From: a virus
Taxonomy: Duplodnaviria; Caudoviricetes
Virus record (IMG/VR): IMGVR_UViG_3300036861_000141
Coordinates: 1-58,565 of that record
Strand: one strand, 5' to 3'
Length of the DNA: 58,565 nucleotides
Shown: positions 9,091 through 51,187 of the stretch, piece after piece
How positions within the stretch are numbered: position 1 is the stretch's first letter
How the letters are laid out: every line of letters starts with the position of its first letter
Translations under genes and position numbers: made by a program
The notes under the pieces: model-generated
What the model was told of the DNA's origin: nothing
The model's input: only the letters and a program-made list of their open reading frames with translations
The model's database searches: none

Positions 9091-11223
9091 ATGGCGAAGA
9101 AGCCCAGAGGGAAATGGACACGGCCGACCGAGCCAGCGCCAGAGCCGACGTCAGTCCCATCCTCTCCGATCTCAGCGTCGATTACAGGGCCGACGTACAG
9201 CGCGGATGGGATGACCGCTACGGTTGCCCTGTCCGCTTCTCAGGTAGCCTCGTGGCGGGTTGAATGGGGTGATGGGCAGGTTCTCCCGAGCAGTGAATCA
9301 AACGCGCCTCCAGCGTCAGCCTCGCACGTCTATAGCGCCGATGGCGAGTACCTCATTCGCTTCACCGTCATGGATGCGAGCGGACTCTCTGTGGAGGCAT
9401 CCGTGAGCGCCGGCATCATCTTCGCCAACGTCAACGCGCACCCTGATACGTCTGCGTTAACTGTCAATGCCGGACCGGATCAGGAATTACAGTTGCCGGC
9501 TCAGGACGTCACGCTCTTTGGCAGCGTTAGCGGTACGTCCGTCGTGGGCCAACACGATGGCCTGTATCTCTGGACCCAGGACAGCGGCCCGGCCTCAGGG
9601 ACGTTTTCGGCCCCGTGGGATCGGCATACCAGCGTCAACCTCACCACGGCTGGTACCTATGTCTTTCGCCTGACCTGTATTGCCTACGGAACGAGCGCCG
9701 CCGATACCGTGACCGTAACGGTCTTAGCGGAATCCGCCGCCACCAAATATTACGTCGATCCCACGTACACCGGAGGATCGAACGACGGCAGCGCGGCACA
9801 TCCGTGGACGACGATTTCCTATACCACCAGTGCAGCCGCAGCAGCCGGGGCTTGGGGCACCATCAACGCCGCCCTGGCGTCGAATCACGTCGTCGTGTTC
9901 TTCAGCGCGCGGCAAGCGGGATCGGACACCGTTGAATCGACCACCAATACCGTCAATCTCTGGCGGACAGACACCTCCACGCACCAGCTGATCTTCGACG
10001 GCAAGAGCAAATACAACACCAGCGACACCTCTGGCTCGTGGACGGATTACGCCGGGTCGAATCGGCACAAACTGAATTGCGCGAGTGGTGGCGGGTCCAT
10101 CGGCGTGCAGTCGGACCAAACCGCGTTTCCCATGCACTACACCCGCATCCGTGGGTTTGAATGCACTGGGATCAATGGCCGCGTCCTTATTGGCGGCAGT
10201 CACGTCACATTGGAGCACTCCTATATCCACGGCATCAACTCGGGTACCGATGCGACCGTGCAGCTCCAGGGCGCGATCAACACCAGCAATGCGAACGTCG
10301 AATTTGGTCGCTTAACGGATATCACCTTCCGCAGTCTCACGATTGGTGACAGCGACTCGGGTGAGTATCTCTATCTCGCCGGCAGTTACACGACTGCGGC
10401 GGACTTCGATCAGGCTGGCGGCACGGCGTACATGACGTACGGCAACACCCATGACAAGATCCTCGTGGAGTATTGCGACATTTCACACGGTGCGGGGACC
10501 GGCGAACAGTTTGACGCCATCGACATCAAGGCCGGCCTCACCAACGTCACCATTCGTGGGAACACGATCAGTAATCTCGTCGCGACCACGACTGGTATTT
10601 CAGCGCTTGGCGTGTTCTGGCCTACTGGCCAGGGCTACGCGCCCACGGTCGGGAATTACCTCATCGAAAACAACCGCTTCCAGAACGGGAATGGAGCTGG
10701 CGGGATTATCCTGTCCAAGATGAGCGGATGTGTGATCCGCAATAACATCCTAAACGCGCATGGCTCGATTCAGACGAGCGGCAACGATCCGGGCACCACG
10801 GCTGGCGATTCGGTCGATTACTGGAAGAGCCGGCGGGTTCAGATTTACAACAACGTCGTTCGTACCGGCATCGTCTATATCTCCTACGCCGATCTGGTAG
10901 TCATCAAGAACAACATCATTATCGAGTCTACGAACCCGTATGGATTGGTGTCGATTGATGGCAGCACCACTAATGCGTCGAACGTGACGGAGGGTTACAA
11001 CGCGACGCACCTGGGGGTGGCGAATGTCACGAGCCTCGGTGGGTCGTTCACGGTCGCATCTCCATATACCGGGCTGTTTGTCGATCTCGCGGGTGGAGAC
11101 TTTCACTTAGGTGCCAGCAGTGTTGCGAAAGATACCGGAACCTCACTCGCGACGATGTTCGCGGTGGACTTTGCCGGCGCGACTCGATCCGGGACGTGGG
11201 ACATCGGGGCCTACGCCGCGTGA
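9091..11223 (+). CDS. PKD/Ig-like domains plus right-handed beta-helix protein (putative virion adhesin or depolymerase)
   Basis: WGDG...SHVYSADGEY (PKD); VNAGPDQ...GTYVFRLT (Ig-like); IENNRF/IRNNIL/IYNNVV beta-helix rungs; C-terminal GDFHL...DIGAY. Confidence 0.75.
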   Translation: MAKKPRGKWTRPTEPAPEPTSVPSSPISASITGPTYSADGMTATVALSASQVASWRVEWGDGQVLPSSESNAPPASASHVYSADGEYLIRFTVMDASGLSVEASVSAGIIFANVNAHPDTSALTVNAGPDQELQLPAQDVTLFGSVSGTSVVGQHDGLYLWTQDSGPASGTFSAPWDRHTSVNLTTAGTYVFRLTCIAYGTSAADTVTVTVLAESAATKYYVDPTYTGGSNDGSAAHPWTTISYTTSAAAAAGAWGTINAALASNHVVVFFSARQAGSDTVESTTNTVNLWRTDTSTHQLIFDGKSKYNTSDTSGSWTDYAGSNRHKLNCASGGGSIGVQSDQTAFPMHYTRIRGFECTGINGRVLIGGSHVTLEHSYIHGINSGTDATVQLQGAINTSNANVEFGRLTDITFRSLTIGDSDSGEYLYLAGSYTTAADFDQAGGTAYMTYGNTHDKILVEYCDISHGAGTGEQFDAIDIKAGLTNVTIRGNTISNLVATTTGISALGVFWPTGQGYAPTVGNYLIENNRFQNGNGAGGIILSKMSGCVIRNNILNAHGSIQTSGNDPGTTAGDSVDYWKSRRVQIYNNVVRTGIVYISYADLVVIKNNIIIESTNPYGLVSIDGSTTNASNVTEGYNATHLGVANVTSLGGSFTVASPYTGLFVDLAGGDFHLGASSVAKDTGTSLATMFAVDFAGATRSGTWDIGAYAA

Positions 11224-12739: not shown

Positions 12740-12950
12740 GTGCGCTCAACGGTCAGTCGGTGTTTCAAATCGACGGCCTGCATCTGAATGAGCCGCACTT
12801 CTTGTTGCAGGAGACGAAGCCACCATGTGGATGCGATGCGCCTGTGCGCGGTGTGTGGACATTTGCCGGCTTGTTGCGCATCAGCGATACCTTGTGTCAG
12901 ACCTATTGCCGGAAGTGCGGCCTGCTCGGTGAGTTTTGGGATCCCTCGAC

Positions 12951-13868
12951 ATGCTGAACGATGCGACGCCAGTCGCTGACGAAGACCTGAAAGTCTTTGA
13001 GGGCATCTCCTTTCAAGGGCACGTGAATGTTTCTGAAGAGGGCCTGCTGGAGAATGTCCGTTCCGCGATACGTAGAGGGCATCAGCAGCTTAGGCCGTCT
13101 CAAGTCCCCAGCTATGAAGAGGTAGTGCTGATTGGTGGCGGGCCATCCCTAGAGGACACGCTCCAAGAACTCGTGGAGCTCGATCGTGCTGGCGCTAAGT
13201 TGGTCACGGTCAATGGTGCCTATCGGTGGGCGCTCGAGCACAACCTGAAACCCACCGCGCAAATCGTGATGGATGCGCGGTCGCACAATGCACGCTTTGT
13301 GACGCCGTTCAAGCCGAAGTGTCATTACATCTTAGCTTCGCAGTGCCATCCAGATACGTGGGATGCGGTGGCGGAGTATCCCGATAGCTACGATCCTAGA
13401 ACCGGCGTGCAGGATGGCGGTGTGTGGATCTTCCACGCGGTGACAGGTGGCGATCCGGCGATCAAAGCGTTGCTTGATGACTACTACCGCCAGCAATGGA
13501 TTGGCGTCGGTGGCGGTACGACGGTGATCATGCGGGCGATCGGCTTGATGTCGATGATGTGGAAGGTGCGCCGGATTCACTTGTTTGGCGTCGATAGCTG
13601 TTTCATGAACGGGAAGGGCCACGCCTACGAGCAGCCAGAGAACGAGCTGGATCGGGCGCGACCGTTTCGCATCGAGCCGACTGGTGGACATCCAGAACTG
13701 GCTCGGACGTTCATGGCTGCGCCGTGGCATGCAAAACAAGCCCACGACCTTGCGCAACTGATCCGGTTGCACGCGGATCACTTCAGGGTCCACGTGCATG
13801 GCGATGGAATGTTGGCCTACATGCTGAAGTCTGCGGCTGATGCTGCAGTCATTGAGGCGATGGGGTAA
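12951..13868 (+). CDS. Maf/DUF115 (MptE-like) glycosyltransferase-like protein
   Basis: VLIGGGPSL, VTVN, VMDAR, GGTTV, IHLFGVDS. Confidence 0.7.
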   Translation: MLNDATPVADEDLKVFEGISFQGHVNVSEEGLLENVRSAIRRGHQQLRPSQVPSYEEVVLIGGGPSLEDTLQELVELDRAGAKLVTVNGAYRWALEHNLKPTAQIVMDARSHNARFVTPFKPKCHYILASQCHPDTWDAVAEYPDSYDPRTGVQDGGVWIFHAVTGGDPAIKALLDDYYRQQWIGVGGGTTVIMRAIGLMSMMWKVRRIHLFGVDSCFMNGKGHAYEQPENELDRARPFRIEPTGGHPELARTFMAAPWHAKQAHDLAQLIRLHADHFRVHVHGDGMLAYMLKSAADAAVIEAMG

Positions 13869-21407: not shown

Positions 21408-23330
21408 TTGACTCCCGAACCCCAGAACCGCGCCTGGTCCACGTTTGAACTGAAAGCCATCAACGAGGACGAGCGGATCATTGAAGGCTACGCCAGCACG
21501 CCGACGCCTGACAGGCGAGGTGATGTTATGGAGCCGCTCGGGGCTGAGTTTGACCTCCCGATGCCGTTCCTATGGCAGCACGATCAGGACAGGCCGATCG
21601 GTGAAGTCTTCGAGGCCAAGCCAGACAAGAAGAAGGGCATTTACATCCGGGCTCGTATTGCGAAACTCGATGAGCCAGGGCCGTTAAAGGCACGTCTCGA
21701 CGAAGCGTGGCAAAGCATTAAGGCCAAGTTAGTCCGTGGCCTGAGTATTGGGTGGTCTCCGCTCGAAGCAGCACCCATTAAAGAAACAGGCGGTCTCCAC
21801 GTCCTCCGGTGGATTTGGGCTGAGTTGAGCGCCGTTACGGTACCCATGAACTCGGCCGCATCAATCCTCAAAATCAAAGAACTCGATCTGGCCGCGTCAG
21901 GCCTTCACTCGCCCAGCGTCATGGGCAGCTTCCCTGTTGTCCATGCCGTGAAGGCGGCACCTCCAATGACTAGCACCATTCCCGAACAGATCACCAGTTT
22001 TGAAAATACCCGCGCGCTGAAGAACTCCCGCGCGATCGAGATCATGACCAAGGCCGCAGAAGCCGGCGTGACCCTCGATGCGGCACAGAGCGAGGAGTAC
22101 GACACGCTTCAGCGCGAGATCCAGAGCGTTGACGCGCACCTCACGCGCCTGCGCGAGCTCGAGAAGCTGAACGTCGTCACGGCGACACCGATCGTTACCA
22201 AGACCACCGATCATCTCCAAGCCAGCGAACTCCGCGGCGGTAATTCCAACCCGGTGATCACGGTGAAGGCGAACGTGCCGAAGGGCACCGCGTTCACGCG
22301 CTTTGTGATGGCTAAGATCGCCGGCAAGAACAGCACGTCTGATGCAATCCGCTACGTCGAAGAAAACAAGACGTGGATGGACCAGACGCCGGAAGTTCTG
22401 CTCGCGCTGAAGGCCGCGGTGAATCCCGGCACGATCGCAGAGCCGGCGTGGGCCGCACCACTCGCCGTCGCGCGTCCGATGCAGGACGAGTTTCTCGATT
22501 TGCTTCGCCCAGAAACCATTCTCGGAAAAGTGAGCGGCTTCAAGCGCGTGCCGTTCAACGTGAGCGTGCCGGTGCAAACCGGAGGCGGTACCTACAATTG
22601 GGTTGGAGAGGGTGCGCCCAAACCAGTCGGCAACCTGCAGTTCACCAGCGTCACGCTTGGTATCGCCAAGGCCGCTGGCATCATCGTGATCTCGGAGGAA
22701 CTCGCGAAGATTTCGACACCATCCGCAGAAGGCGTTGTGCGAAACGACATGATCCGCGGTATGGCGCAGTACCTCGATCAGCAGTTTATCGATCCAACTG
22801 TCGCGGCGGTGACGAACGTATCGCCGGCATCGATCACGAACGGGGCAAACGGTTTTGCCACGGCCGGCACGTCTGCTGACAACGCACGCACGGACATCAA
22901 GAAAGCGATCACGCTGTTCACGCAGAGCAATCTATCGGTGTCAGAGGCCGTTCTGATCATGTCGGAGGCCAATGCCTTCGCACTCGCGACGGCACTCACT
23001 GCCAATGGCGTGCGAGTTAATGCGGATCTCACCGCGAAGGGCGGATCGATTCTCGGCATTCCGGTTGTCACCAGCCAGACTGCCGGTAACGTCGTCGCGC
23101 TCGTTCATGCGCCATCGATTCTCTTTGCCGATGACGGTGGCGTGAATATCGATATCTCGCGCGAAGCCAGCGTTGAGATGAGCACGACTCCAACAAGCCC
23201 GATCTCGGCATCGGTTGTGTCGGTAAACCTATGGCAGGCTAATCTCGTAGGTTTGCGCGCAGAAAGATGGATAAATTACAAGCGCGCTCGTACCGTGGCA
23301 GTTGTTTACACCACGGCCACTTACGTTTAG
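21408..23330 (+). CDS. Fused HK97-type prohead protease and major capsid protein
   Basis: Protease IEGYAS..DRRGD..LWQHD..GLSIG..ELSAVTVPMN, then a coiled-coil scaffold region, then capsid WVGEG..KP, ISEEL, LRAER. Confidence 0.93.
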   Translation: MTPEPQNRAWSTFELKAINEDERIIEGYASTPTPDRRGDVMEPLGAEFDLPMPFLWQHDQDRPIGEVFEAKPDKKKGIYIRARIAKLDEPGPLKARLDEAWQSIKAKLVRGLSIGWSPLEAAPIKETGGLHVLRWIWAELSAVTVPMNSAASILKIKELDLAASGLHSPSVMGSFPVVHAVKAAPPMTSTIPEQITSFENTRALKNSRAIEIMTKAAEAGVTLDAAQSEEYDTLQREIQSVDAHLTRLRELEKLNVVTATPIVTKTTDHLQASELRGGNSNPVITVKANVPKGTAFTRFVMAKIAGKNSTSDAIRYVEENKTWMDQTPEVLLALKAAVNPGTIAEPAWAAPLAVARPMQDEFLDLLRPETILGKVSGFKRVPFNVSVPVQTGGGTYNWVGEGAPKPVGNLQFTSVTLGIAKAAGIIVISEELAKISTPSAEGVVRNDMIRGMAQYLDQQFIDPTVAAVTNVSPASITNGANGFATAGTSADNARTDIKKAITLFTQSNLSVSEAVLIMSEANAFALATALTANGVRVNADLTAKGGSILGIPVVTSQTAGNVVALVHAPSILFADDGGVNIDISREASVEMSTTPTSPISASVVSVNLWQANLVGLRAERWINYKRARTVAVVYTTATYV

Positions 23331-43998: not shown

Positions 43999-44007
43999 AG
44001 GAGCCGT

Positions 44008-44649
44008 GTGGCTGGTATCGTCCGAACCTTCATCAACGCCTCACGACTCGCGGTGGGTACCGTTCCGACCGCTCGGCTCGGATCCCAATCCGCTAGTGTC
44101 CGGTCGTTTCTCCGAGGTGACCAACAGTGGGCCGGGGCCGATTCCGTCATCGCCGTGAAGACTGCTGACACTGAGGTCGTTAATACGGTTACGACGACGA
44201 CTGTCTTCACGACGAGCATCCCTGGTGGAACGCTTGGCACGCAGGGGGCACTCGAAATCGAACTAATGGGAAACGTCGAGAACAACTCCGGTGGGACGCG
44301 GTCGCCGTCGATGGCGATGAACTACGGCGGCCAGTCGGTGTTCAGTGGCGTGTTCGGTTCGTTGAACGATGCGACGAATCGCGCACCGTGGATCGTGCGT
44401 GCGGTGATCTACGCCCAGAACAGCGAGTCGGTCCAACGCGCGAGCCTGACATCGTTCCTCGGTATTGGCGACGACGCCGATGGAGGCGGCATCACAGCGC
44501 AATCAACGATGCGTGGCGGCTTCAATAGGGCGCTGACCGTCAGTAGCGGCGGCACTCAAACACTGGAGATCACTGTGACGCCCGATCTGGCGCATGCCAA
44601 CTTCAGTGTGCGTGTGGATTCGGTCAGAGTTAAGGCGTTGTACGCCTAG
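44008..44649 (+). CDS. Minor tail / fibre-like protein
   Basis: GTVPTARLGS......FLRGDQQW motif typical of phage fibres; AAGGAG RBS. Confidence 0.65.
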   Translation: MAGIVRTFINASRLAVGTVPTARLGSQSASVRSFLRGDQQWAGADSVIAVKTADTEVVNTVTTTTVFTTSIPGGTLGTQGALEIELMGNVENNSGGTRSPSMAMNYGGQSVFSGVFGSLNDATNRAPWIVRAVIYAQNSESVQRASLTSFLGIGDDADGGGITAQSTMRGGFNRALTVSSGGTQTLEITVTPDLAHANFSVRVDSVRVKALYA

Positions 44650-44655
44650 TGTGAA

Positions 44656-44809
44656 GACCTGAGAGAGCGGCCGACGTCCCGTGTCACCGGAACGCCGGCC
44701 AGGCGAGCTACGCAGGAAAGACGGTCCTGCGGTTCACCCGCCCGATCAGATTCTGGCAGGAACCGCGAGGAGCAGTTGCACGGTTTCTGAGGGGATGGGT
44801 GAACGGGTC
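44656..44809 (+). ncRNA. Multi-branched structured leader before the lysis cassette
   Basis: Stems GACC/GGUC, GGCCG/CGGCC, CGCAGGA/UCCUGCG, GUUCACCCG/UGGGUGAAC and AGGAACCG/CGGUUUCU. Confidence 0.5.
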
Positions 44810-45190
44810 ATGGACTGGTATCAGGGCGTACAGGTTGGCCAGTCAATTCTCGTTGGGCTGGCCGGTATCTTTGTCTGGGTCTGGGGTCGCCAGCAGAAAG
44901 CCGAACGCGAACTACTTGAGGGGCGTTTCCAGCGGATTCTCGAGCGGCAAGAGGAGCATGAGGAGGAGTTTAACCGGCGGCTCGATTCGATTAACCACCA
45001 GTTGTCATCGCGGTTGTTGCCGGCGATTCAGGATTTGATTGCACGAGTTGATCGGATGCCGGATGAACTGCGGGTGAAGTTTCTGCCGCTGGATCGGGCG
45101 ATGGATTTGATCGAGGAGTCGCGGCGCGATCGGGCTGCGCTCTGGAATGAAATCACGAAACGCGGAGGCCGTAGAGGCCCACGGGAGTGA
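44810..45190 (+). CDS. N-terminal TM plus coiled-coil protein (lysis-associated)
   Basis: One TM (ILVGLAGIFVWVW) and a charged helix. Confidence 0.65.
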   Translation: MDWYQGVQVGQSILVGLAGIFVWVWGRQQKAERELLEGRFQRILERQEEHEEEFNRRLDSINHQLSSRLLPAIQDLIARVDRMPDELRVKFLPLDRAMDLIEESRRDRAALWNEITKRGGRRGPRE

Positions 45191-45368
45191 GAGGAGACGA
45201 CATGGCAAAGAAAGCCGACGTGATCCAAAGAAGTTATCTCCAAGAGCACTGGGATCGGCTCCTGTCGCGCAACGATGTGTCTCCGGTCGTCAAGGCGTTT
45301 ATTCGGAAAGAGAAGCGGTGGCTGCACGCTGCGCTCAAGCGGGCCGCGTCACCGGGAGGGTTGGGGAA

Positions 45369-45503
45369 ATGAGTCTGTCTATCGATCTCGTGTTGCTCGT
45401 GCTGGCGTTGATCTGCTTCGTCGCGTCTACGTTTGGCGTGACGTCCAAGGCGAATCTTCAGTCAGCAGGCTTGGCGCTCTGGGTGTTGTCCATCCTGATT
45501 TGA
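45369..45503 (+). CDS. Small two-TM protein
   Basis: MSLSIDLVLLVLALICFVASTFGV...LQSAGLALWVLSILI. Confidence 0.6.
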   Translation: MSLSIDLVLLVLALICFVASTFGVTSKANLQSAGLALWVLSILI

Positions 45504-45510
45504 GGTTCAC

Positions 45511-45825
45511 ATGGAACTGTTAACACCCGTCCACAAAGAGGCGACGGTCAAGCACGCGAAGCGATTTGGCGGCTGGTGGTTAGGATGCCTAGTGCTCATC
45601 GGCGTGATTGGCCTGTATGCGAATCAACAGTTGCCGGTGTTGATGTTCAAAGCGGCGCAGGTATGCCTCGGTCTGATGCTCGCCTACGTGGCCGATCGCA
45701 CGCTGTTCAGTAACGCGCCCAACATCTCCTGCGAGATGCCGACAGATATGGTGGGCGCAGCGCGCATTGTGGCGCGGGCCATTGTTGCGCTCGCTGTCAT
45801 CGTAGGACTCACGGTCGGGATCTGA
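45511..45825 (+). CDS. Putative holin
   Basis: Three hydrophobic helices; stop overlaps the endolysin start. Confidence 0.7.
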   Translation: MELLTPVHKEATVKHAKRFGGWWLGCLVLIGVIGLYANQQLPVLMFKAAQVCLGLMLAYVADRTLFSNAPNISCEMPTDMVGAARIVARAIVALAVIVGLTVGI

Positions 45826-46430
45826 TGCGCGTTGTGCTGCTGACATTTACGCTGATCGCGGTGGATGTGCCGGTGTGGGCGCAAGTGATCCCGCGTGCCG
45901 CGCTGCAATATAAGCGGGCACTAATCGGGAATGCTCGGTTAGTGTGGGGGCTCGATGCGCCGGTCAGTTTGCTCGCGAGCCAAGTGCATCAAGAATCGGG
46001 TTGGAATCCGAACGCGAAGAGTGCGTACGCGAATGGACTCAGTCAGTTTACGCCGTCGAGTTCCAAATGGATCTCTGAGTTGTTTCCTGACCTTGCCGAC
46101 AATGCGCCGTTTGAGCCGAGTTGGGCACTTAGGGCTGTCAGCAGGTTTGATCGCTTTCTCTGGGAACGTGCATCGTACGCGGCTGACGAGTGCTCAAGAG
46201 CATCGCTCATGTTGTCGGGGTACAACGGCGGCGAAGGCTGGGTCGCGCGGGACCGAAAACTAGCAGCGTCTAAAGGTAAGGACGCCACTAAATGGTTCGG
46301 CAACGTCGAACTTTATAGCAGTCGAGCGTCGTGGGCCTTCACAGAAAACCGCAGGTATGTGAAGCGCATCCTGAAAGACATTCAGCCGCTCTATATCAAG
46401 GCAGGCTGGGGCGTTGGCATCTTATGTTGA
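45825..46430 (+). CDS. Endolysin, lytic transglycosylase (SLT)
   Basis: QVHQESGWNPNAKS..A.GLSQF, GYNGG, ENRRYV; N-terminal signal or SAR-like segment. Confidence 0.92.
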   Translation: MRVVLLTFTLIAVDVPVWAQVIPRAALQYKRALIGNARLVWGLDAPVSLLASQVHQESGWNPNAKSAYANGLSQFTPSSSKWISELFPDLADNAPFEPSWALRAVSRFDRFLWERASYAADECSRASLMLSGYNGGEGWVARDRKLAASKGKDATKWFGNVELYSSRASWAFTENRRYVKRILKDIQPLYIKAGWGVGILC

Positions 46431-46444
46431 CTGGAGCGAAGTAA

Positions 46445-46873
46445 ATGCCGGTCTGGCTGTTATTCACTAGGTTGCCCATGTGGGTCAAGGTTGGCGCTGG
46501 CATGGGCCTACTGCTCGCGGTGATGCAGACCGTGAACTGGTGGAACAACCGCGATCTGAAACGCGATCTTGCAAAGCAAGAAGCCCTACTGAAAGAGACG
46601 CAGGAGGCTGCGGCACGTACAGCGGTTGACCTCCAGCGCGAATCCGACAACCGCGCCAACCTTGAAGCGGTCAATGCACGGCAGAACGCCCAGATCCGAG
46701 ACATCGCGACTCGAGCCAGGCAGGCGGAAGCGGCGGCAGCCCTCGCTACGATTCGGCAACTGCAAGACGGGGAGGCTGCGGCGAATGCGCTGCGGCAACC
46801 GACGACGACGGTGCCTGTGGGAGATGTGGCGATGAATCGCTGGCTGAGTGAACGGTTCGGAGGTGTGAAGTGA
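46445..46873 (+). CDS. Putative i-spanin (Rz-like)
   Basis: N-terminal TM and long coiled coil, directly after the endolysin. Confidence 0.7.
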   Translation: MPVWLLFTRLPMWVKVGAGMGLLLAVMQTVNWWNNRDLKRDLAKQEALLKETQEAAARTAVDLQRESDNRANLEAVNARQNAQIRDIATRARQAEAAAALATIRQLQDGEAAANALRQPTTTVPVGDVAMNRWLSERFGGVK

Positions 46874-47268
46874 AGCTGTCAGGCCGGCAGGGCTTGAGAC
46901 CTGCTCAGTGTCCTCGGCAACCGTGGTTGTCCGTCACATGCCTGTTTTTAAGGCGCGTCCTTCCGCGCTGCAGCCTGACACTGGCGATTATACCGCTACT
47001 GTTCCTGATCGGGTGCCACAAGAAGCCACCCATCGTTGTGCCGCCAGAAATCAGGACGGTAGAAGTATCAGTCCCGGTCCCTGTTAAAGTTGCACCACCA
47101 GTTGAACTCCTCGCCGCCGTGAAGCCTCCGCTGCCGGTGTTTGTCTCACCCGCTGATCCGATGGCAACTTCAGGCTTGACGGCTGAGGGAGAGCGGATGC
47201 TCAGAGGACTCATCGAGGAGCTGTTGGGACGCCTCGAGGCATGGAAAGCCTGGGCGAAGGAGCCGTAA
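46870..47268 (+). CDS. Putative o-spanin lipoprotein (Rz1-like); exact start uncertain
   Basis: Lipobox LFLIG-C followed by a Pro/Val-rich segment. Confidence 0.7.
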   Translation: MKLSGRQGLRPAQCPRQPWLSVTCLFLRRVLPRCSLTLAIIPLLFLIGCHKKPPIVVPPEIRTVEVSVPVPVKVAPPVELLAAVKPPLPVFVSPADPMATSGLTAEGERMLRGLIEELLGRLEAWKAWAKEP

Positions 47269-48516
47269 ATGCCTGGTGACACTCCACGTAGTCAGTGGAC
47301 CGTCGAGACGTTACATGAACACTTGATCACGCTCATTGATGAGCGCGACAACAAGTATGGCGCACGCTTCGACGCAACCGAACGGGCCACGAGTACGGCG
47401 ATGAAGTCGGCGGAGACGGCGGTCCTGAAGGCGGAAACGGCGGCCGAAAAGCGTTTCGAGTGTGTGTCTATTGACACCCCTATCCTCTGTGCTGACCTCG
47501 TCTGGCGACCGGCCGGAGACCTACAGGTAGGAGACGAGTTAATCGCGTGCGACGAAGATGCACCGACTAGGCATGGCCGTCGCTTCAGACGTGCCGTTGT
47601 CACGGCCAATGCATCTCACGAAGATGCGCTCCTGCATGTCACGACCACGCACGGAGACGTACGGTGTAACGCTCAGCATCCGTGGCTAGTGTTACCAATA
47701 TCGGCGCAACGGCGTGGTACCGGCTGGCGGTGGGTCCGCGCGTCTGATCTGAAACATGGCGACAAAGTAATGCGTGCTGCGGATCTGTGGACGCCAGATC
47801 ACTCGTGGGAGGCCGGTTGGCTGGCTGGCATGTATGACGGCGAAGGGTGCTTAAGTTACGCGAAGCAGTCAAACACTAGCGTCCGCAATCGAGAGGGATC
47901 CGAGACTAGTTACCTCGGCGTGCATCTCACGCTGTCGCAGCGCGAAGGCGACACGGCCACTCGGATTCACATGGCGCTCGAGCGCTTACTAGTCTCCCTG
48001 TGCATCCATCGGAGGCCGGCTGGTAAATACCGGCACACGCAGCCATTTTTTCATTTCATTGTGACGCGGCGCGCAGAGGTTCTCAGGATTCTTGGAACGA
48101 TCAGGCCGCCACGATTGCTCCTGCGCTCTGATGGTGTCTGGGATGGACGGCCGATTAACGGTAATCATCGCGAGACGACAGTGGTATCGGTAGAGTCGGC
48201 TGGGGCCGGCATGATTGCGGCGCTCTCGACATCAACTCGAACCTATATCGCAGGCGGGTTCGCGATGCATAACAGCGTGAACGAGTTCAGAAATACGTTG
48301 TCCGATCAGCAACGAAACCTCATGCCGCGTGCGGAGGTGGACGTGATCGTCAAAGGCTTGCAGGACAAGATCGCGGCGATTGAAAAGCAGCAAGACAACA
48401 TGATTGCCGAGCGCGCAGGATTGAAGGGTGGGTACGGCTGGGCGGTGGGAGTGATCGGGTTGGTGCTCGCGATGGCGTCCATCATCGCCTTAGCGTCACG
48501 CTTCGGCGGACAGTGA
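47269..48516 (+). CDS. Coiled-coil protein with C-terminal TM, interrupted by an intein
   Basis: Exteins of 64 aa and 80 aa; spliced junction AAEKRFE|SVNEFRNTLSDQQ. Confidence 0.9.
   Translation: MPGDTPRSQWTVETLHEHLITLIDERDNKYGARFDATERATSTAMKSAETAVLKAETAAEKRFECVSIDTPILCADLVWRPAGDLQVGDELIACDEDAPTRHGRRFRRAVVTANASHEDALLHVTTTHGDVRCNAQHPWLVLPISAQRRGTGWRWVRASDLKHGDKVMRAADLWTPDHSWEAGWLAGMYDGEGCLSYAKQSNTSVRNREGSETSYLGVHLTLSQREGDTATRIHMALERLLVSLCIHRRPAGKYRHTQPFFHFIVTRRAEVLRILGTIRPPRLLLRSDGVWDGRPINGNHRETTVVSVESAGAGMIAALSTSTRTYIAGGFAMHNSVNEFRNTLSDQQRNLMPRAEVDVIVKGLQDKIAAIEKQQDNMIAERAGLKGGYGWAVGVIGLVLAMASIIALASRFGGQ
47461..48273 (+). mobile_element. Intein (271 aa) with LAGLIDADG homing endonuclease
   Basis: Block A CVSIDTPILCAD, block B VRCNAQHPWL, WLAGMYDGEG, blocks F/G VVSVE...TRTYIAGGFAMHN followed by Ser+1. 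Confidence 0.92.
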
Positions 48517-48559
48517 CATCGTGAGCCTTATCCGTTTGGGGTGTTGATTGTGCAGGCGA

Positions 48560-48781
48560 TCAAGCCGTGAAGTTCTCGGGCCGCTTAGTCATGGCGGCGT
48601 TCAACTGGCCTATTGCGCGTATTGCTTCAGTTACGGTAAGGCCAGTACGACTTAGGCATTGAGAGAGGGTGTTGATCGCGGTGTTCAGTTCGTGGTCGCT
48701 CAAGTGGTCGGTAGAAATACCCCAGGCCGATAGCTCAGAGCGAACCTGCTTGATTGCATCGTGCCACCGCTGGTGATTCAC
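48560..48781 (-). CDS. Small hypothetical moron, probably leaderless
   Basis: TAGAAT 6 nt before the GTG. Confidence 0.5.
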   Translation of the reverse strand: MNHQRWHDAIKQVRSELSAWGISTDHLSDHELNTAINTLSQCLSRTGLTVTEAIRAIGQLNAAMTKRPENFTA

Positions 48782-48801
48782 ATGCCGATTCTACACCTGA
48801 T

Positions 48802-49824
48802 ATGAGCCTCCTCGATCTGCGCTGGCGCAAGAAGAAACCTGCCACAGTGCCAGCGCCTCCGCTTGAGCCTCCGCCAAGTGGATCTGTCACGTCAATAAGA
48901 GTCACCGATGAGCGGGACGGTGAGATTCCAAACAGAGGCCACAGCTACCACAGTCAGGTTTATAACCGTGGCGAAGATGTCTGGTTTGCCTTTTGCGGCA
49001 ACGCAGATGGACACCCGCGGTTCTTCAAGATTGAAGGCACTGCGATTACTCGGCTCGGCCCGCTGTTACCGTTTGTCACAACCGGCGAAGGCATGTACTG
49101 GGACGCATCTGGATGGATTTACGTATGCGATGGCCCGCGCCTGCTGCGCGTCAATCCGTTTACCGGCCAGCAGACGATCGCGCTGGACATCTCGCAGACG
49201 CATCCAGGCTGTGACCTGTGGCAGAGTCATTCATCCGAGGATGGCCGTACGCATAGCGCCACGGTGCGCCAGATTGTTACCGACGGTAAGTATCCGAACA
49301 TTGGGACAATCGTGCAGAAGGATGGCGCACAACAGTTCTACGGAGCCGAGGGCGTGCTGGACGAGTCCCACCTGACATCCGATGGGTCGCATTTGCTGAT
49401 CGAAGAATCAGACGGCAATCTGATTGTTGATTTGTCGAGTTGGGGCGAGCGCTGGATTACCAATGCCGAAGGGGCACTCAGCCACGTTGACTGCGGACCT
49501 GATTATGTCGTGGGTGAAGACGATCAGGCTGGAGCCTGTACGTATCTGGATCTGAGGACGTTGGAGCGACGACTGCTATTCCCGACGTGGGGCATGGGCC
49601 ACGTCTCGGTGCGCGCTGGCAAGTGTCTACTGAGCGATGCCGAAAAATTGTCCATGGTTGCGCTGGATGGCTCAGGCGTCACGTCGCTGGCTCCTCACGG
49701 CATGGTGAGTGATGGCACCTACGAGACGCAGGTGTTCGGAAATCTCTCGCCAGATGGCAGCGTCGCGGCCTACGTCTCGAATGTTGCTGGTAGGTTCGAT
49801 CTGTATGTGCTGAGAGTGCCCTAA
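48802..49824 (+). CDS. Beta-propeller (TolB/WD-like) protein
   Basis: Repeated SxDG blade turns (SEDGRT, TSDGSH, LSPDGS.AAYVSN..GRFDLY); basic and Pro-rich N-terminus. Confidence 0.65.
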   Translation: MSLLDLRWRKKKPATVPAPPLEPPPSGSVTSIRVTDERDGEIPNRGHSYHSQVYNRGEDVWFAFCGNADGHPRFFKIEGTAITRLGPLLPFVTTGEGMYWDASGWIYVCDGPRLLRVNPFTGQQTIALDISQTHPGCDLWQSHSSEDGRTHSATVRQIVTDGKYPNIGTIVQKDGAQQFYGAEGVLDESHLTSDGSHLLIEESDGNLIVDLSSWGERWITNAEGALSHVDCGPDYVVGEDDQAGACTYLDLRTLERRLLFPTWGMGHVSVRAGKCLLSDAEKLSMVALDGSGVTSLAPHGMVSDGTYETQVFGNLSPDGSVAAYVSNVAGRFDLYVLRVP

Positions 49825-49828
49825 GAGA

Positions 49829-49913
49829 CTGGCCGGAAGTCGGCTCACCGCTGGGACCGATGTCCATCAGGATCCCCCTGAGCGTCGGAGGTGGGAGACC
49901 GGCTTCCGGCTAG
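49829..49913 (+). terminator. Long imperfect hairpin between the late operon and the convergent integrase
   Basis: CUGGCCGGAAGUCGG/CCGGCUUCCGGCUAG outer stem plus three stacked inner stems with many G-U pairs. Confidence 0.55.
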
Positions 49914-49915
49914 CG

Positions 49916-50101
49916 TCCCACAAATTCCCACAAATATTCTCCACACGTGTCGTCCAGATCGTAAGGTTTATGGCGTATTATGTCCTCTCGTGTCCACTGT
50001 TCCAGGTAGGCTAGAAGCGGCGAAAGTCCCATATCTATTGGCGTGATCGCACACGAAAGCCCCTAGAACGTCTGCACGGCCACACCCCCCGCCTTTCTTT
50101 T
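49916..50101. other. Probable attP region
   Basis: Non-coding gap at the 3' end of int; tandem TCCCACAAAT x2 at 49916-49935 resembles arm-type sites. The core was not identified. Confidence 0.5.
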
Positions 50102-51187
50102 CTAGCCTCGTTTTCGTTCCTGTTTTCTCACTTTTGCAGCTGTCCCACGTTTTGGCACCACAGGAAATCCCCCGAAGCGCCCTTCCAGCAACTGCCCGAG
50201 CTTCTGCATCCGCGAGTTCAGGACGGGTACATAGTGCCGGCGAGTCATCCGGGTATCGGAGTGTCCTGCTCCGGCGGCAATGTCCGCTAAATCAGCCCCT
50301 CGCTCGGCCGCTTCAATCCATGTTGAGTGTCGCGCGTTGTAGGGTCTGACACCTTCGGGCCAGCCACATCGTCTGATCGTCTTCGCAAACGCAGAGGTGC
50401 CATACTCGCCCCATGCATCAACCTCTGCAAAGAGCTTCCACGCAGCCAGCATGTCGTCATTGAGGTAGAGGCCCGGCGACCATCCGCCTTTGCCGTCTCG
50501 CACCAACCAGACACGGCGCTCAAGATCGACGTCGCCCTTTTTTGCTCGCATGATTTCTGACGGCCGGCGTCCAGTTGAGACGAGGACGCGGAACCGTGCG
50601 CGAGTCTTGGCGGTGAAGTGGCCTGTTTTCTCTCTCGCCTGCAACTCCTGATCGACCTTCAGGATCGTCTCGGCGTCGATGTGCTGGATCGGCGTCCTAG
50701 GCACGTGGAGCGGCGGCACATCGTCAACGGGCGTTGGTGCTCTCCTGCCGTCCAGCGTGTGGTACAGATGCCGGAGCGTTTCGCAGCGGTGGTTGATGGT
50801 GCGCGGAGCTGCCTTGGCCTGTTGCCATTTCACGCGAGCGGCGAGCACGTCCGTTCGGTTGATGCGGTGCCGCGGCACGTCGCCTAAGAGGGCATTCCAG
50901 TGCGCCAGGTGGGCTTTGCGATTGCGGCAGGAAACGAGCGTGGCAACGAGCTTTAGGTACTTCGGCGTGTCAGCCTTGAGCGTGCCGCGCTCAGCCTTTG
51001 GGGTTTCGGTTCTGCCTTGGCTTTCGAGTTGAGCGCGTTTCGTTAATAGCTCGTCTGGCGTGGAGTCCTTCGGCATCCGTGCGTAGTAGGCGGTACCGCC
51101 CACAACCACGCGGATTTCGTACGCACCGTCCTTGCCTTCACGATACACATTCTTGGTGAACCGAATCCGTTTGCCCTGACGTGGCAC
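50102..51187 (-). CDS. int: Tyrosine integrase
   Basis: TGRRPSEI (R), DGKGG (K), YNARHS (HxxR variant), GHSD..MT.RHY. Confidence 0.93.
   Translation of the reverse strand: MPRQGKRIRFTKNVYREGKDGAYEIRVVVGGTAYYARMPKDSTPDELLTKRAQLESQGRTETPKAERGTLKADTPKYLKLVATLVSCRNRKAHLAHWNALLGDVPRHRINRTDVLAARVKWQQAKAAPRTINHRCETLRHLYHTLDGRRAPTPVDDVPPLHVPRTPIQHIDAETILKVDQELQAREKTGHFTAKTRARFRVLVSTGRRPSEIMRAKKGDVDLERRVWLVRDGKGGWSPGLYLNDDMLAAWKLFAEVDAWGEYGTSAFAKTIRRCGWPEGVRPYNARHSTWIEAAERGADLADIAAGAGHSDTRMTRRHYVPVLNSRMQKLGQLLEGRFGGFPVVPKRGTAAKVRKQERKRG

Follow-up and report, generated by a model that had tools for sequence, protein, structure and literature searches.

The window analysed here is the complete record of a soil phage (IMGVR_UViG_3300036861_000141; 58,565 bases with terminal repeats of 127 bases, computed on the sequence), and its open reading frame (ORF) at 47269..48516 on the plus strand encodes a 271-amino-acid (aa) intein within a 144-aa protein. 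In our reading this is a homing intein in a membrane-anchored phage protein, placed there by conservation of the DNA, the host protein being possibly an accessory of lysis; we give this reading as a whole a probability of about 80%. The intein is real and is probably an active homing element, in an unusual host whose function we infer.

The precursor ORF starts with ATG and runs in an intact frame for 415 aa, the exteins being 64 and 80 aa long. An earlier reading of the DNA, made from the letters alone (the sequence-only reading), had given this ORF, the size of the intein and the junctions Cys65 and His334-Asn335/Ser336, and all agree with the sequence on checking. We regard it as close to certain that the insert is a real intein, exactly placed. 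An AlphaFold model of the precursor, built from 35 aligned sequences, has a mean predicted local distance difference test (pLDDT) score of 85.7, with most of the intein above 90. Foldseek of this model against the PDB gives 56 matches at expectation value (E) <= 0.001 with solved inteins on top, the best being the TliVMA, PI-SceI and PI-PfuI inteins (E 1e-9 to 1e-8); the target TM-score (template modelling) is 0.79 for mini-inteins and 0.82 for the hedgehog autoprocessing domain. The insert is thus predicted to have the HINT intein fold plus one LAGLIDADG half-domain. Among profiles, positions 76-336 of NCBIfam NF038136, an intein-containing radical SAM model, match precursor residues 65-337 (E 2.9e-7); the match spans the insert with the same boundaries as the sequence-only reading had drawn, and scores 29.7 bits against a whole-protein cut-off of 700 bits. 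Like TliVMA (7qsu), PI-SceI (1ef0/1vde) and PI-PfuI (1dq3), the window intein has in the model a HINT fold with the endonuclease between blocks B and F. Those three inteins carry two LAGLIDADG motifs in one chain, whereas the window intein has one motif, and the AlphaFold model shows its insert, some 120 aa long, as one alpha-beta-beta-alpha-beta-beta-alpha unit.

Several results weigh against a typical, active homing intein. The sequence-only reading had proposed the Hint and LAGLIDADG profiles as a check, and those of Pfam leave the intein undetected: the whole precursor matches no family at E <= 0.1, the intein and either extein alone match no intein or Hint model at E <= 10, and LAGLIDADG_3 on the intein alone reaches just E 0.049. 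A phmmer search with the single intein sequence against PDB sequences found no intein, only a chance pyruvate kinase match (E 0.46). The usual Asp of block F seems to be absent in the alignment, read by eye. Only one LAGLIDADG motif and one half-domain are present, in place of the two-motif form usual in inteins, so that endonuclease activity would need dimerisation. The guanine plus cytosine content of the intein (0.587) equals that of the genome (0.585), so composition shows no recent arrival. The failure of the Pfam intein models and the seemingly missing Asp could also be expected of a decaying, non-splicing remnant in an effectively dead copy of the host gene, which is the last in its operon in a phage that has other membrane lysis proteins. 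We consider decay very improbable. The 415-codon frame is intact, the splicing residues and the acidic residues of the LAGLIDADG motif are present and conserved across the 35 aligned alleles, the HINT fold is predicted with high confidence, and the two exteins are still 73% and 50% identical to the intein-free homologue P0001.

The residues needed for splicing were surveyed in 120 carriers of this intein family (from 240 proteins stored), 54 of them in the host family and 66 elsewhere. Within the host family Cys1 is kept in 53 of 54 inteins (one gap), the block-B His in 52 (two gaps), the C-terminal His-Asn in 50 (four gaps) and the Asp and Glu of the LAGLIDADG motif in 49 (five gaps), the gaps being fragments or mini-inteins; the +1 residue is Ser or Thr at the tabulated junctions. 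Judged from conservation alone, the intein is probably active in splicing. The sequence-only reading had taken the Asn at the first position of block B (Asn134-x-x-His137 in the window), in place of Thr, as a sign of slow or conditional splicing. This does not hold, since Asn occupies the position in 48/54 host-family inteins; the 66 relatives in other hosts have Thr (23), Asn (22) or Ser (19). Such an Asn, common in the intein family, is ordinary variation and gives no hint of impaired splicing. Two further cysteines near Cys1, Cys74 and Cys133 (intein positions 10 and 69), are both present in 77/120 members of the intein family and may form a structural or redox pair.

The LAGLIDADG motif is invariant across the 35 aligned sequences, in which the alleles are 39-65% identical. 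Weak profile matches fall at profile positions 176-257 (an I-OnuI-type fusion, E 0.013; I-AniI, E 0.038; I-CvuI, E 0.62). One PHROG family, phrog_5046, labelled 'HNH endonuclease', matches precursor residues 181-266; the label conflicts with the single LAGLIDADG half-domain and was taken as wrong. From these sequence features we put the chance that the endonuclease is active, acting as a dimer, at about even. In a freshwater metagenome run (X2) a 151-base contig matches the endonuclease-coding stretch 47888-48038 with two mismatches; coming from one contig of low depth, it is a weak sign of a near-identical intein elsewhere.

Among 1086 candidates scored, 161 shorter proteins match both exteins. 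In 18 aligned intein-free homologues ...KRFE is directly joined to SVNEFR..., as confirmed by pairwise BLASTP; their junction reads AEKRFE/D then S/A-VNEFR at the place where 271 aa separate Glu64 from Ser336 in the window protein. Two segments of P0001 align with the window protein, residues 19-76 with its residues 10-67 and residues 73-149 with its residues 335-411. The search with the spliced extein that the sequence-only reading had suggested therefore does find KRFE joined to SVNEF, in many homologues. The genes of 92 non-redundant intein-free loci were then aligned to the family profile. The 8-codon window with the highest nucleotide conservation is RFESVNEF (0.80), and amino-acid conservation peaks at the same place. 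The earlier description of KRFE/SVNEFR as a strongly conserved motif is borne out, as conservation in the host gene is highest at the insertion point for amino acids and nucleotides alike; such conservation would suggest that the motif is essential. As the best-conserved DNA target in the gene, the insertion site suits the need of a homing endonuclease. The intein-less joint was not found in the identical 58,444-base contig of a soil metagenome run, though contigs cannot exclude a rare variant; this run was the only DNA run listed with the full window sequence and may be the source of the record, and no RNA run with the sequence was listed.

Within the host family the intein occupies more than one position. 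Junctions of the 54 proteins were tabulated and then grouped and counted by hand, and 32, including the window's own and one fragment, use the window's site. In P0137 and P0147 the intein is shifted by about one residue. The remaining inteins lie at several upstream positions of the same N-terminal helix, always followed by Thr or Ser, with the C-extein starting ahead of the SVNEFR Ser by about 12, 19-22, 30, 38 or 49 residues (rough counts by eye from the alignment). Carriers with other positions are P0130, P0148, P0150, P0153, P0154, P0156, P0158-P0163, P0165, P0168, P0169, P0176, P0177, P0180 and P0189; the intein could have invaded each position independently or could have homed ectopically into helix segments that resemble repeats. 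Two mini-inteins occupy the window's own site, one of 177 aa in P0155 (453 aa) and one of 161 aa in P0178 (361 aa). The P0155 sequence has the endonuclease deleted, including the LAGLIDADG motif, while for P0178 the length alone was considered. A homing cycle would be expected to pass through just such stages, namely empty sites, full inteins and inteins whose endonuclease has decayed.

The same intein family is found in quite different hosts. A tblastn search retrieves it at full length (271 aa) from 171 GenBank phage records with about 32-33% identity (E 1e-25 to 1e-29); in the 30 rows listed, the genes annotated where the match falls are Gordonia phage portal and Mycobacterium phage terminase genes. 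The Mycobacterium phage terminase inteins (in records such as Cali, LRRHood and Catera) and the Gordonia portal inteins (in records such as Jormungandr) are of the same family and length as that of the window and, from the equal length, probably share the single-motif endonuclease. Their hosts are DNA-packaging proteins (ATPase, portal), whereas the window host is a small, tail-anchored helical protein without a recognisable enzyme domain. Among metagenomic proteins, 11 are split at ...N/[TS]-H-x-D-P-G (P0174, P0179, P0181, P0183, P0184, P0187, P0188, P0190, P0193, P0201 and P0202; Amidase_2 label in four, LysM label in two) by inteins about 45% identical to the window's over the intein. By their motif these appear to be endolysin-type amidases split inside a conserved element, H-x-D-P-G, which we take to belong to the amidase zinc site. 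Further members split ParB-like proteins (...DGF/TQP...) and RNA ligases (...KVDG/S...), and junctions or precomputed Pfam labels place others in DNA polymerase A, portal and AAA proteins. The window genome has no second copy of this intein family. Its terminase, portal and methylase give contiguous Pfam matches with no intein-related family, in agreement with the earlier statement that the terminase and methyltransferase carry no intein.

This distribution bears on the suggestion of the sequence-only reading that splicing could gate the activity of the host protein, a suggestion that is true trivially, as the precursor is an interrupted protein, and no further on the present evidence. A true gate would mean an inactive precursor and a splicing rate, or a redox or metal dependence of splicing, that sets the time of lysis. 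The insertion does fall in the middle of a long helix with the most conserved motif, so that the precursor is very likely non-functional; the joint presence of Cys10 and Cys69, the latter beside block B, could allow a redox effect on Cys1, and conditional splicing is documented for other inteins in the accessible text of two papers (PMC6195587, PMC7360933). We nonetheless think regulated splicing unlikely here. Searches that were neither exhaustive nor comparable retrieved 161 intein-free against 54 intein-bearing proteins, from which it follows that the host protein works without an intein, and the block-B Asn, as the common state of the intein family, is no special feature. The presence of this family in terminases, portals, ParB-like proteins, ligases and amidases is what a selfish element would be expected to show.

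We therefore favour homing over regulation and propose the following sequence of events. The intein would excise itself in the cytoplasm after translation and join ...AEKRFE to SVNEFR..., a ligation that would restore one continuous long helix. The mature protein would then insert into the cytoplasmic membrane through its C-terminal helix with its bulk staying in the cytoplasm. Once free, the intein would cut, probably as a homodimer in the manner of single-motif LAGLIDADG enzymes, intein-free alleles in co-infecting phages and copy itself in. On this proposal the intein is located where it is because the site is the best-conserved DNA target common to many otherwise unrelated phages, and neither the chemistry nor the regulation of the host protein would be the reason for its location.

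The host protein belongs to a very large family. When 1.84 billion cluster representatives were searched with a profile built from 45 intein-free members, 8095 matched at E <= 0.001, of which 4498 reached E <= 1e-10 and 628 reached E <= 1e-30. There are relatives in 242 IMG/VR contigs, and 27 genome loci are spread over Actinomycetota, Acidobacteriota, Proteobacteria, Chloroflexota, Verrucomicrobiota, Planctomycetota and candidate phyla. The motif of the family is almost invariant over 20 residues. The model of P0001 (mean pLDDT 90.7) has two long helices (21-88 and 92-150) with a break at a conserved Met-Pro-Arg, a layout that puts the intein in the middle of helix 1. The sequence-only reading described the extein protein as a coiled coil with a C-terminal transmembrane helix; the transmembrane helix stands, and the coiled coil is better replaced by the two long helices, which fit the models better. 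All of 137 family sequences (45 + 92, some possibly overlapping) have a single hydrophobic segment, at the extreme C-terminus and followed by a median of four residues. Glycines are conserved near this helix in the alignment with homologues (Gly384, Gly394 and Gly397 of the precursor). A C-terminal anchor in a protein that lacks a signal peptide points to a tail-anchored, N-in topology, and in this topology the intein could fold and splice in the cytoplasm before membrane insertion.

The family is almost without names in the databases. The precomputed Pfam column is empty in 119 of 120 listed homologues, Foldseek of the extein model against BFVD gives no match at E <= 0.001, and an ESM Atlas search with P0001 returns unnamed clusters that are 94-100% viral. 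DUF7201, the nearest named ESM Atlas cluster (19% of members, score 0.86), is below a trustworthy level and was rejected. A prediction of P0001 self-association as a two-copy complex scored 0.05 and gives no verdict either way.

The link to lysis comes from the surroundings of the gene. The order in the window is holin candidate, endolysin, two spanin-like ORFs, host gene, a small reverse ORF, a beta-propeller protein and integrase. The second spanin-like ORF has a weak match to phrog_812, 'Rz-like spanin' (E 0.0053), and the pair is otherwise read as spanins from its architecture. In the viral contig L002, an intein-free allele follows homologues of four window genes, those for the endolysin, the two spanin-like proteins and the propeller protein. 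For a wider view, same-strand ORFs were chained at the 92 non-redundant loci and two upstream and two downstream ORFs were taken at each (30 ORFs of at least 500 aa were left aside, and the scans took the first 150 of 152 and the first 150 of 158). The majority of these neighbours belong to no family, and peptidoglycan hydrolases dominate among the rest [upstream: Phage_lysozyme 3, Amidase_2 1, Peptidase_M15_4 1, M23 1; downstream: Peptidase_M15_4 5, M23 3, DUF5675 3, Amidase_2 2, VanY 2, SLT 1, DPBB_1 1]. PHROG 'endolysin' families top the upstream and the downstream list. Whole records were searched for 50 of 80 viral records, with one near-duplicate pair among them and coordinates converted by hand, and the matches above cut-off were Amidase_2 (4), Phage_lysozyme (7) and Peptidase_M15_4 (5). 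The nearest hydrolase match is within 3.5 kb of the host gene in 12/13 independent viral contigs and within 2.5 kb in 11/13. Small ORFs with a hydrophobic segment stand immediately upstream of the host gene in 28/88 cases versus 4/53 four genes upstream, by a crude hydropathy rule that missed some membrane proteins of the window.

We tentatively suggest, at rather less than even odds, that the host protein acts at the cytoplasmic membrane during lysis, where it would help to permeabilise the membrane. A number of observations count against such a role. The argument for it comes from position alone. In one provirus record the only amidase match is 29 kb away. BLAST clustering of 540 proteins from the 92 loci and the window found no conserved neighbour family, the largest cluster having five members. 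Eight intein-free homologues gave only weak and mutually inconsistent PHROG matches, the best to a tape measure family (E 0.0046). Two extein homologues had no tblastn match in 50,697 GenBank phage records, which means that no studied phage carries the host protein. Homologues in Micromonospora (about 38-45% identity) lie in a non-phage chromosomal setting. Upstream of them is a gene of the 2'-5' RNA ligase family, downstream are DUF5715 and asparagine synthase, and a short-chain dehydrogenase and an HTH regulator are also nearby. The synteny is partly shared in 4/8 loci (L085, L088, L089, L090), no phage genes were recognised there, and two neighbours had no phage match. These homologues may represent a branch of the family that is cellular or has been domesticated. 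The label 'lysis-associated' of the sequence-only reading thus fits the viral contigs, where the host gene is linked to endolysin, and does not extend to the whole family. In Micromonospora sp. M12 (L104:4938-6350) the family profile covers no more than residues 32-129 of a 470-aa ORF, which could reflect a fusion, a further insertion or an artefact of the reading frame.

Some of these observations would fit a host protein that has nothing to do with lysis, a general membrane-tethered cytoplasmic protein such as a membrane-stress, exclusion or assembly factor. Its place would then be that of a late-operon end, and the nearness of endolysin would reflect usual module order only. The Micromonospora loci and the lack of a conserved partner gene across the 92 loci speak for this; so do the holin candidate and the spanin-like pair that the window already has, and the position of the host gene, which precedes endolysin in most contigs and follows the spanin-like ORFs in the window. 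We consider it possible, with some doubt. The endolysin linkage in 12 of the 13 contigs would be expected by chance in about one in ten for contigs of about 39-90 kb (an estimate), endolysins are the dominant named neighbours on both sides, a small membrane ORF often stands immediately upstream and the Gly-rich transmembrane helix is conserved in the family, all of which argues for a part in lysis.

Comparison with known lysis proteins suggests how a lysis accessory of this kind could work. Like XhlA and SPP1 gp24.1 (PF10779), the host protein is small and helical, with one C-terminal transmembrane helix, and is encoded beside an endolysin and a multi-span holin. As the accessible text of one source has it, neither XhlA (PBSX) nor gp24.1 (SPP1) is harmful alone, and with a two-span holin each kills and lyses (PMC6316719). 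By analogy the host protein would most likely act as such a C-terminally anchored holin partner. The likeness is one of analogy and not of membership: hhalign gives a probability of 1.3% against gp24.1 and 1.0% against 31 XhlA proteins, which tells against homology, the Pfam scan finds no PF10779 match for precursor or exteins, and the only trace of XhlA is phrog_1193 'hemolysin' (E 0.094) in one of eight homologues. Unlike XhlA, the host family is about 60 aa longer and its hosts span many bacterial phyla, not just Bacillota. The gene order of the window (endolysin, spanin-like pair, host gene) also resembles the setting of Mu gp25, the 'releasin' (DUF2730, PF10805), described in the accessible part of its report as a membrane-tethered cytoplasmic protein with a lysis role other than that of a classical holin, encoded a few genes downstream of endolysin and spanins (PMC9239132). 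Mu gp25 is anchored by an N-terminal helix, whereas the host protein is anchored by a C-terminal one, and the Pfam scan finds no PF10805/DUF2730 match for precursor or exteins. DUF2730 is reported, in the same accessible part, from transposable phages only (PMC9239132). No sign of a transposable phage was noticed in the window, where no search aimed at a transposase was made. Holins are defined in function, as small membrane proteins encoded beside the endolysin that permeabilise the membrane when they accumulate. The host protein agrees with them in size, single transmembrane helix and endolysin linkage and could act as one; the window has another holin candidate. A spanin-like role was rejected because the family is found in genomes labelled Micromonospora, Gaiellaceae and Saccharibacteria, which to our knowledge lack an outer membrane and so offer a spanin no target.

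A bolder view would take the host family, by the same analogy, as a widespread new class of independently arisen tail-anchored lysis effectors, partners of multi-span holins, with splicing made rate-limiting or redox-sensitive by Cys10-Cys69. We hold this combination to be distinctly improbable. If true, the intein would be a post-translational lysis clock, and this could explain why one small gene has been colonised at many positions.

Placed among published inteins, the host is unusual. In the accessible parts of two surveys, most inteins are found in ATPases and nucleic-acid-handling proteins (PMC4760082, PMC5050341). The mycobacteriophage survey, to the same extent, has 13 host groups of DNA-related or packaging proteins and hypotheticals with none from lysis or membrane (PMC5050341), and the survey of bacteria and archaea stresses replisome proteins and includes phage terminase and portal hosts (PMC4760082). 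None of 224 mycobacteriophage endolysin (Lysin A) genes has an intein according to the available portion of another report (PMC3314691). Among the titles and abstracts retrieved, with incomplete coverage of the literature, none dealt with an intein in a holin-like, tail-anchored or endolysin protein. This host shows that an intein can also settle in a protein that is probably no enzyme. The case supports the view that conservation at the DNA level and exchange among co-infecting phages place inteins, more than catalytic chemistry does. The intein further flags a very large, Pfam-less family of phage proteins adjoining lysis genes, which makes that family a good place to look for a lysis component still missing from uncultured phages. 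Protein engineers may find a use for so compact an intein (271 aa, with a single-motif endonuclease) and for the natural mini-inteins of 161-177 aa that share its site.

Table 1. Features of the intein-bearing gene and of the genes upstream of it, in window coordinates.
Feature	Position	Strand	Remarks
Holin candidate, 3 predicted hydrophobic segments	45511..45825	+	Pfam Holin_2-3, E 1.5e-10; phrog_1528 holin
SLT-type endolysin, hydrophobic N-terminus	45825..46430	+	Pfam SLT, E 3.5e-8; phrog_669 endolysin, E 3.9e-44
Two overlapping spanin-like ORFs (putative i-spanin 46445-46873, putative o-spanin 46870-47268)	46445..47268	+	From architecture; o-spanin with lipobox-like LIGC
Shine-Dalgarno-like AAGGAG	47257..47262	+	6 nucleotides before ATG; read from sequence
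N-extein, 64 aa	47269..47460	+	N-terminal part of long helix ending ...AEKRFE; model helix 12-60
Intein, 271 aa, protein residues 65-335	47461..48273	+	Cys1, block B Asn-x-x-His (134-137), C-terminal His-Asn
Cys65 codon TGT	47461-47463	+	Intein residue 1; read from sequence
Homing-endonuclease insert, about residues 175-294, approximate boundaries	47791..48150	+	One LAGLIDADG half-domain; model, weak profile matches
Single LAGLIDADG-type motif, residues 183-193	47815..47847	+	Acidic Asp190 and Glu192
His334-Asn335 codons CAT AAC	48268-48273	+	Intein C-terminus; read from sequence
Ser336 codon AGC	48274-48276	+	+1 nucleophile; read from sequence
C-extein, 80 aa plus stop	48274..48516	+	Starts at Ser336, then invariant VNEFR..DQQR..PR motif
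C-terminal transmembrane helix, about residues 391-409	48439..48495	+	Gly-rich N-terminal side; 6 residues after helix

The TAA of the upstream ORF (47266-47268) immediately adjoins the ATG of the precursor ORF. A public gene call for the precursor (P0121, 397 aa) begins at a TTG 18 codons downstream of 47269. We prefer the ATG at 47269 as the start because Trp10, which is invariant across the aligned homologues, is thereby retained and because AAGGAG lies 6 nucleotides before it. A scan of 44000-50200 for promoters and terminators found nothing above shuffles. The gene for a protein of some 350 aa, which weakly matches a WD40-like beta-propeller (PD40), adjoins the host gene in the window (48754-49824) and in two other viral contigs (L002:2382-3431 and L015:5599-6762), on either side. 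Elsewhere in the window, in the early or middle region, are a 710-aa protein with PKD domains (9091-11223) and a 310-aa MptE-like protein (12936-13868), and a single 640-aa ORF at 21408-23330 combines a Peptidase_S78 prohead protease (13-154) with an HK97-type major capsid domain (354-625).

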